This document shows, piece by piece, positions 19,975 through 35,036 of a DNA stretch of 44,163 nt. Below the pieces are notes generated by a model. That model worked only from the letters and a program-made list of their open reading frames with translations. It had not been told where the DNA came from and did no database searches. A program made the position numbers and the translations under genes. Position 1 is the first letter of the stretch. Each line of letters begins with the position of its first letter. The stretch is from a virus. Its lineage: Duplodnaviria > Caudoviricetes. The stretch lies in the IMG/VR virus record IMGVR_UViG_3300025610_000042, positions 1 to 44,163 of that record; one strand, written 5' to 3'.

Positions 19975-20051
19975 GGGGGTGATCTGGTCAGGGTTAAATG
20001 CTTATCCAAATACTCATCTAACCAACGTGGGTTCGACTCCCACCACCTCCA
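19975..20051 (+). ncRNA. tmRNA-like tRNA-like domain (Ala identity) lacking the mRNA-like domain
   Basis: Acceptor GGGGGTG/CACCTCC with G3:U70 and discriminator A; T-arm GTGGG-TTCGACT-CCCAC; no D-stem; central helix GGTTAAATG/CATCTAACC; CCA not encoded. Confidence 0.75.
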
Positions 20052-20301
20052 CAAATTGCCAGGTAAACATTGACGTATTCATCTATATTTTCTGCGCGCC
20101 GCGATTAAGGTATGGGGGTTTGTGTTTGCGTGTGTTTATGCGTGTGTGGTTGTGTTGCGCGGTGCTGCGATTCGTAGGCGGTTTGCGTCGTACTGTCTCG
20201 ATATGCGTTCGACAACTAGAAGACCAGGCGCTGCTTTAAATCTTCCAGGAGTACCTGGTTTTAAAATGGTGATCTAAATTATTTTGCGCACGTGATACAA
20301 A

Positions 20302-20567: not shown

Positions 20568-20892
20568 TGTTACCACCTGGAACCAATTGCTTTTGTAAGT
20601 AATGAAGACTAACAAATATGTGATTTGTGTCTTCTTGCTCAACGTGTAAATCTAAATCGCTATCAATGAAGAGATAATTATTTGATTCCTCGCCAAAGGT
20701 CTCAATATAATGTTCTCGTTCTGTGTCATAACAATAATTTAACACGTGTGTAATTGCTGCATAGAGTTCTTCATCTAAGCGGATAGTATTCTTGGCTTGG
20801 TAACCTTTAGCAGCATAACCTGAAACTATCCAGGCAGTGCTTACAATCCACAATAGAAGTAGAACACCAATATAATTAATTTGCATATTCAT
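20560..20892 (-). CDS. Hypothetical protein with N-terminal transmembrane helix
   Basis: YIGVLLLLWIVSTAWIVSGY; RBS AGGAG. Confidence 0.65.
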   Translation of the reverse strand: MNMQINYIGVLLLLWIVSTAWIVSGYAAKGYQAKNTIRLDEELYAAITHVLNYCYDTEREHYIETFGEESNNYLFIDSDLDLHVEQEDTNHIFVSLHYLQKQLVPGGNNA

Positions 20893-26071: not shown

Positions 26072-26316
26072 CAGTCGTTATCCTCCTCGTTAATATCTTG
26101 TTCTTTATCTATATGGTATTCTACCCATACTTTTGTTTGTTTACCAACACTATATTGTTTTAAAATATCTGTAATACTTTGTTCCATGTGGTTAAATATT
26201 ATATCAAATATTTTTTCTGCTTCTTCAACATTACTTGCAGTAATTATAAAGTCTCTTGTACTGTGATCAGTAAACATTACTTTTACATCTCTGTCCATTG
26301 GATGAGGTGCGCTCAT
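26071..26316 (-). CDS. Hypothetical protein
   Basis: 81-aa ORF with start/stop overlaps. Confidence 0.65.
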   Translation of the reverse strand: MSAPHPMDRDVKVMFTDHSTRDFIITASNVEEAEKIFDIIFNHMEQSITDILKQYSVGKQTKVWVEYHIDKEQDINEEDND

Positions 26317-26516: not shown

Positions 26517-26753
26517 TTAGTCGCCGCCGCGTTCTGATCTAACAAATACATAATGTATAACGTTATTCCAGTTTTCAAAATGGTGTATGTTTAAACCATG
26601 TCTGTGTAACCAGTCACGTAACTCACCTGTGCTGTCTATGTACTTAGGACTGTTCTTATGTATTACAACAAATCCTCTACCAGTTTCTCCAACTGATTGT
26701 ACAAGTTCTGACAACATAAAGTTATCATCAAACGTAGTATTAATTGCAGTCAT
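26517..26753 (-). CDS. Hypothetical protein, first gene of early operon
   Basis: RBS GGGAGG; TATAAT upstream at about 26773-26778. Confidence 0.65.
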   Translation of the reverse strand: MTAINTTFDDNFMLSELVQSVGETGRGFVVIHKNSPKYIDSTGELRDWLHRHGLNIHHFENWNNVIHYVFVRSERGGD

Positions 26754-26811
26754 TACTACCTCCCACTATTAATTATATAGCATAAATACAGAATCGTAAA
26801 GAATTTATAGT

Positions 26812-26890
26812 AAAAACACCAGATCGAAGTTATGATCTGGTGACAAGGATCAGAGTAAAGGAGGAAACCTCTGACCAATGAATTGACTTG
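26812..26890 (-). ncRNA. Candidate small RNA with anti-SD loop
   Basis: Extended -10 TGCTATAAT (26905-26897); hairpin GGTCAGAG-GTTTCCTCCTTTA-CTCTGATC; terminator CACCAGATC-N8-GATCTGGTG-T5. Confidence 0.65.
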
Positions 26891-26916
26891 ACAACTATTA
26901 TAGCATGCAGTAATCT
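26888..26916 (+). promoter_or_regulatory. Sigma70-type promoter overlapping a divergent extended -10
   Basis: TTGACA-N17-TAATCT. Confidence 0.6.
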
Positions 26917-26922
26917 GTGGAT

Positions 26923-27001
26923 ATAGTTATCTTACGTGTCATAACGTTAGACAACTCCTTCCCACAAGCAATAAAGCGGACCTGTGAGTCCGCTTTGCTT
27001 T
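26923..27001 (+). ncRNA. Candidate trans-acting antisense small RNA against early-gene RBSs
   Basis: Lies between promoter and terminator; 26951-26965 matches 14/15 nt of the strand opposite the RBS at 23756-23770. Confidence 0.65.
26973..27000. terminator. Bidirectional intrinsic terminator
   Basis: AAAGCGGAC-CTGTGA-GTCCGCTTT, T-rich on both strands. Confidence 0.8.
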
Positions 27002-28220
27002 ATACTATCTCTTTATTATTGTGTCCTTTATGATCTATAACCATAGTCATAACACCTTGTTTTGTTTTCTTACCTGCTTGATGTTCAAACCATGTTGACT
27101 CATCTAAGCTAGGTACCTGGATCCAGGTGCGTCCATCATGTACTTCTCTGTGGTGGTGGTAATGTCCTGTAACCAGGATCTCGCTTGATCCTGCATGAAA
27201 GCCACCGAATGTTTGGTTCTTCCACCAGTTCATTAGTTTATTTTCTACCGATCCACTGTAACCTGCAAGATGTCCATGAGTAAAGCTCATGTTTGTGCCA
27301 CATACATTTAATGATAAGTGTGGTTCATCTGGTATAACAAACTTTACATGTTTGTACTGTGGTTTATCTGCAAATATTTCTGCAATCTGTTCAAACACTT
27401 CTATGTCATAGTTGTCCATCTCACCTGTTGGTGCAAGATTCTTTGCAATTCTTTTAGTTCCATGATTACCTGGTACTGCACCTACTACAACTACATCAAA
27501 GTCTCTTGACCATTCAACTAATGCTTTAGCAATAAGTCTTCTAGCTAACTTCATTTGATTACGATAATCGAGTTCGACTCCGTTAGGTCCCATAGCTTGT
27601 GGATAAAATCCTACGCAGCCCTCGACTATATCACCGAGTCCTACAACTGTTAACTGATCTAGCTGCACTCCTGCTTTACGCAAGAAGTTATAACGATCAC
27701 GTACTGTATCTATCTTTTCTAAAAATCTATTAACAATAGCTTCAGTACCACCGCCATCACGCTTGCCTAACTGTAGGTCAGATATAGCAACAAAGAAACT
27801 AGCTTTAGGTTTTGTTACTTTAGGTTTAGCTTTACGCTTGTAAGTCTGGATCCACTTAGATATACGATCATAATCTTCTTTGTCTAGTGCATGTTCTTTG
27901 TACACAATCTGTGCTTTGTATGCCCATGCTTGTTGCACGTCTCCTTTGCCCATATTCATATCCCACGTGCTTACACGGATAGTGTCATTAAGAATAGAAT
28001 ACTTGTCAGGATCGAATCCCCAAGATTGTAAAAGATCATTAAACTCTGGACTAGCGTTGTCCATAGGTCTTGTAGTTATAGTTCCAGTCTTAGTTTTGTA
28101 ATCAAAAGTAACGCCTGGTTCCCAACCATTAGGGTGGGATTCTACATCTTTAGTTTCGTTGTGTGCTACGTCCTGTTGGGTTGCAGTAAGTTTACTTACC
28201 TGCGAGTTGTTTTTTTGCAT
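27000..28220 (-). CDS. Calcineurin-like metallophosphoesterase (MRE11-like nuclease family seen in actinophages)
   Basis: SDLQLG, GLGDIVEG, VPGNHG, THGH, TGHYHH. Confidence 0.85.
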   Translation of the reverse strand: MQKNNSQVSKLTATQQDVAHNETKDVESHPNGWEPGVTFDYKTKTGTITTRPMDNASPEFNDLLQSWGFDPDKYSILNDTIRVSTWDMNMGKGDVQQAWAYKAQIVYKEHALDKEDYDRISKWIQTYKRKAKPKVTKPKASFFVAISDLQLGKRDGGGTEAIVNRFLEKIDTVRDRYNFLRKAGVQLDQLTVVGLGDIVEGCVGFYPQAMGPNGVELDYRNQMKLARRLIAKALVEWSRDFDVVVVGAVPGNHGTKRIAKNLAPTGEMDNYDIEVFEQIAEIFADKPQYKHVKFVIPDEPHLSLNVCGTNMSFTHGHLAGYSGSVENKLMNWWKNQTFGGFHAGSSEILVTGHYHHHREVHDGRTWIQVPSLDESTWFEHQAGKKTKQGVMTMVIDHKGHNNKEIV

Positions 28221-34025: not shown

Positions 34026-35036
34026 ATGAAAAATTTGCACATACAAATATTAGGCAACGGTTTACCATCGCATTTGTCTTTAGTAAAATTTTATAAAAAT
34101 AATAAAATAAATTGGGATTATGTTGAAAGCAATTTTGAATTACCTATGTCATCTACACTAGATCTTATACCATTTTTAAAAGAAGGAATAAATTTTGATT
34201 GGTCAGATTTAAATTTAATTAACGGTAGTTTAAAAACTGGAGTTCAAAAAAGAAATTACAATAACAAAGTATTTAATTCTAATTTTCACGCACCCTACGT
34301 TGCTTTACACTTTGATACTTTAAGTATGTGTAAATATTTGTACGATCAATGTGGATATACAAAAACAAAAAAGTCAGATATTATTATTAATACAAGCAAA
34401 CCAGAAACATTTGAAACGTATAAATTATTAAATCATGTACCAACTAATTGTGGTGTTGGTTATAAAATAAAAGAAAAACATAACATAACACATACAACAA
34501 TAGAAGCTGTTGAACACGGTTGGTTGCAAACAATACCAACAAAAGATTATATTTATGTTTATTATATATTTAATTCTGATTTAAATACACCACAAGAAAT
34601 AGCGAACTCATTACCATTGCGTAATTATAATTATCAAGTTATTAATTTTTCTAGTTACTATTATCAAGATCCATTTTTAGATCAAGAATTAAAATTAGGT
34701 CTTAATTCTTTTTTTATAGAACCATTTGACGCTACATCTATATCTGGAAACATAAGGTTGTTAGATCTATACACAGAAATAAAAAATAATTTTATTAAAA
34801 AAGAAGAGGGATTGTATTTATATTATGATTACATTAAAGAAGCAATGGAAGTATTAATGTTGCATTATGTATCTGATGTACCCTACAAAAGTAAATTCTG
34901 GCAAGAAGCAAAAGATAAAGCAGTTGATTACTTAACAAACACTGGTGTAAAAAAAAGAGATGTAAGTAATTTTTATACTAAAGAAGGATACAATAAGTTA
35001 TATAAAAATTTAAATGTTTTTAATTATATTCAATAA
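34026..35036 (+). CDS. Flavin-dependent tryptophan halogenase-like protein (divergent)
   Basis: ALHFD, GWLQTIP, GLNSFFIEPFDATSI, LHY..SKFW. Confidence 0.7.
   Translation: MKNLHIQILGNGLPSHLSLVKFYKNNKINWDYVESNFELPMSSTLDLIPFLKEGINFDWSDLNLINGSLKTGVQKRNYNNKVFNSNFHAPYVALHFDTLSMCKYLYDQCGYTKTKKSDIIINTSKPETFETYKLLNHVPTNCGVGYKIKEKHNITHTTIEAVEHGWLQTIPTKDYIYVYYIFNSDLNTPQEIANSLPLRNYNYQVINFSSYYYQDPFLDQELKLGLNSFFIEPFDATSISGNIRLLDLYTEIKNNFIKKEEGLYLYYDYIKEAMEVLMLHYVSDVPYKSKFWQEAKDKAVDYLTNTGVKKRDVSNFYTKEGYNKLYKNLNVFNYIQ

Follow-up and report, generated by a model that had tools for sequence, protein, structure and literature searches.

What is known of how lytic phages bring early protein synthesis to an end comes mostly from the T4 proteins RegB and RegA. 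The intergenic region analysed here raises the question of whether a phage could achieve such a shut-off with a small RNA of its own: an initial annotation had proposed that it encodes one RNA, antisense to the translation starts of several early genes, that coordinates the silencing of the early programme. The window, by which we mean the whole stretch of DNA analysed, is an entire phage record of 44,163 bases with 35% G+C, and its genes lie nearly all on the minus strand. The proteins recognised with PHROGs include a terminase, portal, capsid, holin, RusA-like resolvase and exonuclease. We refer to the block of small genes at 26753-20560 as early and to the structural, lysis and exonuclease side as late; this assignment was made from gene content and from host-type promoters at 26800, 23804 and 21900, and the timing is thus a predicted one. 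Many late genes in the window overlap the preceding stop codon, and the sole large plus-strand gene with a family match (34026-35036, tryptophan-halogenase-like, PHROG 2928) lies amid tail-associated genes.

An actinobacterial host is a guess. The closest cultured terminases are those of Streptomyces phages (~26%), a host genome scan returned one 1.5-kb contig with 34% identity that was not usable, and the accessible parts of PMC7771536 contain no link to an actinobacterial host. RNA runs containing the cassette region are labelled freshwater and marsh. We also noted an 80-nt RNA at 19975-20054 (plus strand) that resembles the tRNA-like domain of tmRNA only, with the mRNA-like part absent (Rfam RF00023, E=2.9e-13, 36.8 bits, under the gathering score of 47). 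It is kept, with variation, in the related loci L064, L081, L091, L097, L119, L122, L123 and L124, and could possibly act as a decoy for SmpB or alanyl-tRNA synthetase.

Anatomy and conservation of the cassette

As judged from its sequence, the region 26810-27003 is a real and conserved cassette of two divergent small-RNA-like genes with overlapping promoters, RNA-A on the plus strand and RNA-B on the minus strand. It is larger than the element initially annotated, which did not include RNA-B. The cassette is flanked by a gene of an exonuclease family (27000-28220, minus strand, PHROG 284), which served as the query for finding relatives. Eighty loci were collected via the exonuclease and 88 via the RNA-B pattern. 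We identified the cassette in 124 records of at least 2 kb, many of which are duplicates of the same contig, with 26 distinct RNA-A variants and eight seed types.

The predicted RNA-A promoter, TTGACA-N17-TAATCT (26888-26916, plus strand), the core of the match region (26936-26965) and the terminator (26972-26997) all lie where the initial annotation had placed them. The promoter was absent from the consensus scan list because its -10 box agrees in only three of six positions; a promoter of the form TTG..-16/17-TA...T is nonetheless present in 26/26 variants, 23 of which were found by the pattern with a 17-nt spacer and three by eye with a 16-nt spacer. RNA-A would be ~80 nt long (26923-27003, with the start placed from the promoter), and the z-score of its fold is -5.6. 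The predicted fold consists of a 5′ hairpin with CAU in its loop (26925-26956), the unpaired seed CUCCUUCC and the terminator; within the seed region at 26949-26965, the CCUUCCCAC part is unpaired according to the unpaired probabilities. The terminator hairpin is bidirectional, being listed on both strands, and is common to RNA-A and the convergent exonuclease gene. Like RNA-B, RNA-A shows compensatory stem changes among relatives: double changes occur in 11 of 14 consensus pairs (21 sequences), mainly in the terminator, and the poorly aligned 5′ hairpin contributes only four of the compared pairs. Partial pairing of the seed is predicted in six of the 26 variants, among them L113, L127 and the two T6 variants. 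We regard the promoter-hairpin-seed-terminator anatomy and its conservation as established at the level of sequence. The RNA-A variant of L031 and L055 folds otherwise, with the anti-SD stretch mostly inside a hairpin loop, in an RNA-B-like manner.

RNA-B is predicted to start from an extended -10 promoter, TGnTATAAT (26897-26905, minus strand), located between the -35 and -10 boxes of the RNA-A promoter. This motif occurs in 23/26 variants, and one-base variants of it in the other three, which the locating pattern permitted. The putative RNA of ~80 nt (26810-26891, minus strand, fold z=-4.2) comprises an 8-bp hairpin with a 13-nt loop containing CCUCCUUU (26848-26876) and a terminator (26842-26817). 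In the stem, 93% of the cells are paired and 11 of 15 pairs show double changes (18 sequences), a result reached in 0/500 shuffles, and the G-U pairs point to the C-rich strand as the RNA. Part of the locus selection used the RNA-B loop, so that its constancy is partly built in; the loop is constant also in the loci chosen by the exonuclease protein.

Inversion of the cassette in L039, L040, L047 and L048 fits an action in trans. In the sister exonuclease clade (79 loci), the cassette was mostly absent beside the exonuclease among the output listed. In three loci of that clade (L275:10050-10550, L276:17050-17550 and L302:10500-11000) we observed about three clustered units with C-rich anti-SD stretches, one of which is a variant of the RNA-B loop. 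In L041, the L064 group, L028 and L059, more units of small-RNA size with promoter and terminator lie between the exonuclease stop codon and the cassette, and the site downstream of the exonuclease looks like a small-RNA island. No Rfam family matched at its gathering score, or in the vicinity of the locus with E up to 10; in cultured phages, the best matches to the cassette reached only E ~8.

No conserved ORF was found opposite RNA-A across the 26 variants and eight seed types. On that strand an ATG follows GGAG by 4-14 nt in 21/26 variants and 5/8 seed types, so that RNA-A often mirrors a complete gene start, from which it may be derived. The anti-AUG, present in 5/8 seed types, is hence common and not constant. 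Contig data covered eight of the 19 listed runs (seven RNA runs and one of unrecorded type) as assembled contigs only. In the RNA runs, the contigs of which are unable to show 80-nt RNAs, none lay over 26766-26960 and one reached 26961 from the exonuclease side; a contig of the untyped run spans the cassette region.

Complementarity between RNA-A seeds and early gene starts

The five matches quoted in the initial annotation were all recovered in place. In comparison with 300 controls in which the CTCCTT core was kept and the rest shuffled, the control fraction was 1/300 for gene 23755, 10/300 for 21849 and 25/300 for 26753, and under the same design 57/300 for 20892 and 234/300 for 22450. The first three are the best early sites, with 23755 clearly above the controls; the matches at 20892 and 22450 are chance-level, ordinary SD complementarity. 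The mean across the 17 early starts was reached by 0/300 core-keeping shuffles. As claimed at the outset, the first genes behind all three early promoters are hit: they are the top three early targets of the 17-nt seed, following the promoter-like sites 26800, 23804 and 21900 on the minus strand.

The best predicted target, with a 14/15 match, is the start region behind promoter P2 (23753-23804, minus strand), which belongs to gene 23755-22919. Its 278-aa product had been called clamp-like, for which we found weak hints only (PF02767 on 17% of the members of its Atlas cluster; a profile match to the beta clamp at E=0.058). At P1 (26749-26800, minus strand), gene 26753-26517, the first of the early genes, has a start region that ranks second of 18 by predicted duplex. 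RNA contigs end at 26749-26765 in four runs, which hints weakly at a 5′ end near P1. The predicted target at P3 (21844-21900, minus strand) involves both SD and AUG of gene 21849-21661, the first gene of the ArdA operon; the identity of ArdA given in the initial annotation was confirmed by Pfam PF07275 (30.6 bits, cut-off 27). The predicted targets are thus scattered 0.2-5 kb from the cassette over three operons. In the genome-wide ranking the 23755 site is the best non-self site, and the other two take the 10th and 11th places, interspersed with sites in coding and antisense DNA, so that of the predicted targets only 23755 stands out genome-wide. After a crude correction with opening energies, the three window targets score -7.3 to -9.0 and are not separated from the late starts 44073 (-7.8) and 42036 (-6.8).

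The stronger evidence comes from relatives, in which start codons were called with a simple script. The RNA-A seed varies by lineage, and the early-gene start sites change along with it. For the co-variation test we took one genome for each of the eight seed types, averaged its four best early duplexes and added up the means. The true seed-genome pairing gave -145.1 kcal/mol vs. a permutation mean of -118.6 kcal/mol and was the best of 40,320 orderings; the seed permutation of a second genome set gave 2/40,320, although the eight seed types are related and permutation p-values therefore overstate independence. Seeds with scrambled flanks equalled the true matching in 0/300 cases. The unpaired part of the seed (p=0.0056) and its stem-arm part (p=0.0002) each co-vary with the starts when taken separately. 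When the best 40 sites were taken from 10 early regions on both strands, 28 of them fell at start regions vs. ~3% expected. The gene behind P2 was among the top five targets in 13 of 14 loci and ranked first in seven (a 15th locus had no anchor), even though the P2-driven gene differs among loci, from 58 to 300 codons. The exception is L055, where it ranks 14th of 15.

Closely related phages gave the clearest contrasts. Several proximal early proteins of L266 and L267 are 97-99% identical; the seeds of the two phages differ, and the sites match each phage's own seed. The two best sites of L266 score -19.5 and -19.3 with its own seed and about -13 with the seeds of its sisters, and the GTTAAGGAG sites of L264 score about -19 with their own seed and -11 to -13 with that of L266. 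Because the distal early genes of L266 are a different module, its contrast shows co-segregation rather than point-by-point compensation. In the early region of L266 there are also apparent second, diverged copies of two early genes.

The matching has exceptions. In L028 the own seed ranked fifth of eight; L028 and L081 have a window-like seed and early starts better suited to other seed types, perhaps reflecting a recent cassette swap. Among nine held-out loci, the own seed was clearly first in two; in L370, L381, L392, L398, L406 and L410 a similar foreign seed equalled or slightly outscored it, and in L396 three foreign seeds outscored it.

Late starts behave differently. Foreign seeds pair better with them than the own seed does (p(worse) 0.006-0.039 in 9/9 overlapping representative sets), and in 12 genomes cognate duplexes of -15 kcal/mol or lower were formed by 48/217 early vs. 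0/179 late starts. Since early starts generally have stronger SD motifs (strong motifs at 76/217 early vs. 5/179 late starts in the same number of genomes), the early/late split in pairing is by itself weak evidence. Taken with the shuffled controls, early starts came out ahead both of late starts and of shuffles, and RNA-A is kept in relatives with compensatory changes, which speaks against a decayed gene-start duplication unique to the window. The initial proposal of an sRNA aimed at early starts is thus supported by co-variation of the seed with its cognate early start sites and by the sparing of late starts. We consider the evolutionary evidence for the putative RNA-A targets unusually good.

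Proposed mechanism and alternatives

RNA-A probably is a trans-acting sRNA that pairs with several of the phage's own early ribosome-binding sites and shuts off their translation while sparing late mRNAs. As is typical of trans-acting base-pairing sRNAs, it has its own predicted promoter and terminator without a conserved ORF, a conserved structure with a seed predicted to be accessible, and short, imperfect and evolutionarily maintained complementarity to several distant mRNAs. The best reading, in our opinion, is that of an RNA timer for the early-to-late switch. We infer the following course of transcription, pairing, repression and timing. The host housekeeping polymerase would transcribe RNA-A and RNA-B from phage entry, and as the stable RNAs accumulate, a delayed repression would result, which is what would make them a timer. 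The unpaired CCUUCC toehold would first bind the SD, which lies exposed on the short leaders of early mRNAs, with the pairing extending into the 3′ arm of the hairpin and at times across the AUG. Binding of the 30S subunit would thereby be blocked and ribosomes released for late mRNAs, most of which lack strong SD motifs.

The same pairing might be directed mainly at other phages. RNA-A would then block early translation of superinfecting kin or silence a latent genome, and the seed types would be RNA-defined immunity groups, diverging for mutual escape. At least eight seed types with matched targets exist inside a close clade, cassette and early modules have apparently been swapped among lineages, and the first-expressed genes and the ArdA operon are among the predicted targets; phage antisense RNAs are also described to function in superinfection exclusion and immunity in the accessible parts of PMC12197685 and PMC8198154. 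We nevertheless hold this main role to be unlikely, as neither an integrase nor a repressor was found among the 53 proteins scanned with PHROGs, and self-timing explains the avoidance at late starts with no need of a second phage. Self-timing and kin exclusion are compatible with each other and not exclusive.

A second possibility is that the repeat is bound by a protein, as a DNA operator or a RegA-like mRNA site, with the cassette copy being one more such site. A lineage-specific protein would likewise yield co-variation, the SD-bearing cassette strand and the early genes have a common orientation in most genomes, and the G-U asymmetry test of RNA vs. DNA was neutral, not favouring RNA pairing (26 vs. 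23). We find this reading quite improbable, since the cassette copy sits among its own conserved promoter, compensated hairpin and terminator, the matches require bulges and fall at SD positions, and the matching holds despite inversion of the cassette (L083, L040). Moreover, no regulator family was found among the scanned proteins.

RNA-B likely acts like RNA-A, which is much less certain, with a broader and constant specificity for GGAGGA-type starts and perhaps for host mRNAs. CCUCC is the core of the 16S anti-SD. In the window, the start of gene 26071-25310 (26072-26091, minus strand) is a weak candidate target, as is that of gene 22919. RNA-B pairing was predicted for 53/217 early vs. 4/179 late starts, a preference that is fully accounted for by the generally stronger SD motifs of early starts. 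In a survey of the 17-mer, in which 118 of ~130 stretches were examined, the loop recurred in 8-13-bp hairpins in six of 23 unrelated phage lineages holding it (grouped by eye), with G+C contents of 28-61%. Among these unrelated phages, L203, L210, L202, L227, L262 and L164/L184 carry the loop in long hairpins, some of them beside tRNA-like sequences. Four of the nine records with the RNA-B loop, including a complete 111-kb genome, lack an AGGAGGA-ATG start of their own, so that the partner of RNA-B may be a host mRNA or something else; such starts are present in the remaining five, at 5-9 per record in three.

Could both RNAs then be chiefly tools of host takeover that block strong-SD host mRNAs? 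The clade-wide constancy of the RNA-B loop, its recurrence in unrelated hairpins, the four records without a start of their own and the avoidance of strong SD motifs at late starts agree with this; the seed of RNA-A follows phage genes and not a fixed host motif, and five of the nine loop records do contain AGGAGGA-ATG starts. As a common account it is very improbable, being unlikely for RNA-A and a serious option for RNA-B. It is barely credible that the match is a leftover or active minus-strand gene start (a decayed duplication or mini-ORF), as the GGAG-ATG arrangement opposite RNA-A might suggest, or a genome-wide or host-rRNA-driven RBS style, as the strong SD motifs of early starts regardless of RNA-A and the extended SD motifs of some bacteria (in the accessible parts of PMC13009471) might, given that the ORFs span 1-50 codons, have no sequence common across types and are missing in 3/8 types, that the stems are compensated, that late genes of the same genome lack the style and that near-identical sisters carry different sequences.

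A broader scheme, which we put forward tentatively and with more doubt than confidence, would combine both RNAs in the early-to-late switch: a private, fast-evolving RNA-A, which also defines kin immunity groups, and a universal RNA-B, which silences strong-SD mRNAs including those of the host. Late genes would have lost their strong SD motifs and thereby evaded both RNAs, and the reverse SAS copy of the cluster K mycobacteriophages would have the same explanation.

Comparison with known systems

The comparisons below draw on the accessible parts of the cited sources. The outcome proposed for RNA-A is like that of the T4 RegB endoribonuclease, of which it would be the RNA counterpart. RegB inactivates early mRNAs at GGAG SD sites, spares late mRNAs and has been suggested to make ribosomes available when early expression gives way to late (PMC3014915); it is a protein nuclease that needs S1, whereas here an RNA, whose seed varies by lineage, would play this part. 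No RegB-family nuclease gene was found among the 53 proteins scanned with PHROGs and 21 with Pfam.

Repression of a phage's own genes through RNA pairing is described for C4 of phage P1 (PMC8198154) and for sar and OOP (PMC12197685). These RNAs control a single regulatory transcript, which belongs to the lysis-lysogeny switch, and their genes lie within or opposite it, unlike RNA-A with its predicted targets dispersed over three operons. C4 is located in an operon with its icd/ant targets; its Rfam model gave no match here, and no antirepressor family was found among the proteins scanned (PHROGs, Pfam). A cis-encoded antisense RNA of the sar or OOP type was rejected, RNA-A being intergenic with targets 0.2-5 kb off. 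Type I antitoxins show long complementarity to one adjacent small toxin ORF; this identity was rejected as well, there being no conserved opposite ORF and the best target being the 278-aa gene 3 kb off. Trans-acting, multi-target phage sRNAs are exemplified by PreS of lambda and VpdS of VP882, which are Hfq-bound and have mainly host targets (10.1101/2024.10.31.621285; PMC12197685). No sequence link to RNA-A has been shown, and early-gene shut-off is not described for them in the accessible parts of these sources.

The loop display of RNA-B resembles the 6C sRNA of high-GC Gram-positive bacteria, whose single-stranded C-rich stretches pair with numerous mRNAs and need no chaperone to do so (PMC6486639). 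6C is host-encoded, and the RNA-A seed lies between hairpins, not in a loop. With the 6C Rfam model there was no match at the gathering score, and none around the locus even with E up to 10. By its different sequences and the lack of an Rfam match, the cassette is not a member of RegB, 6C or SAS. We found no published account of an RNA timer or cassette like this one in the literature, which was covered in part. Six motif strings had no match in six supplementary files of Fremin et al. (2023) (PMC10690425), with three further files outside the search, and the cassette RNAs may be among the unnamed candidates of that study.

If the proposed role of RNA-A is true, a small RNA co-evolving with its own set of start sites would constitute a protein-free timer, and the seed/site pairs of sister phages would provide natural compensatory controls and orthogonal regulator parts. 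The parallel in cluster K mycobacteriophages is the SAS, an extended SD-like repeat ahead of non-structural genes, present as a near-exact 13-mer in 11-19 copies; a lone reverse copy lies off gene starts in four genomes, and an RNA or protein partner was considered possible (PMC3203893). Both systems have an extended SD motif restricted to non-structural genes and one reverse copy. They differ in sequence (the 13-bp SAS consensus was absent from the 49 window start regions, read by eye), in the 1-7 imperfect sites per genome found here, and in the RNA-gene anatomy of the reverse copy, which co-varies with its sites. For the mycobacteriophage SAS motifs, left open in 2011, our results also suggest a direct hypothesis.
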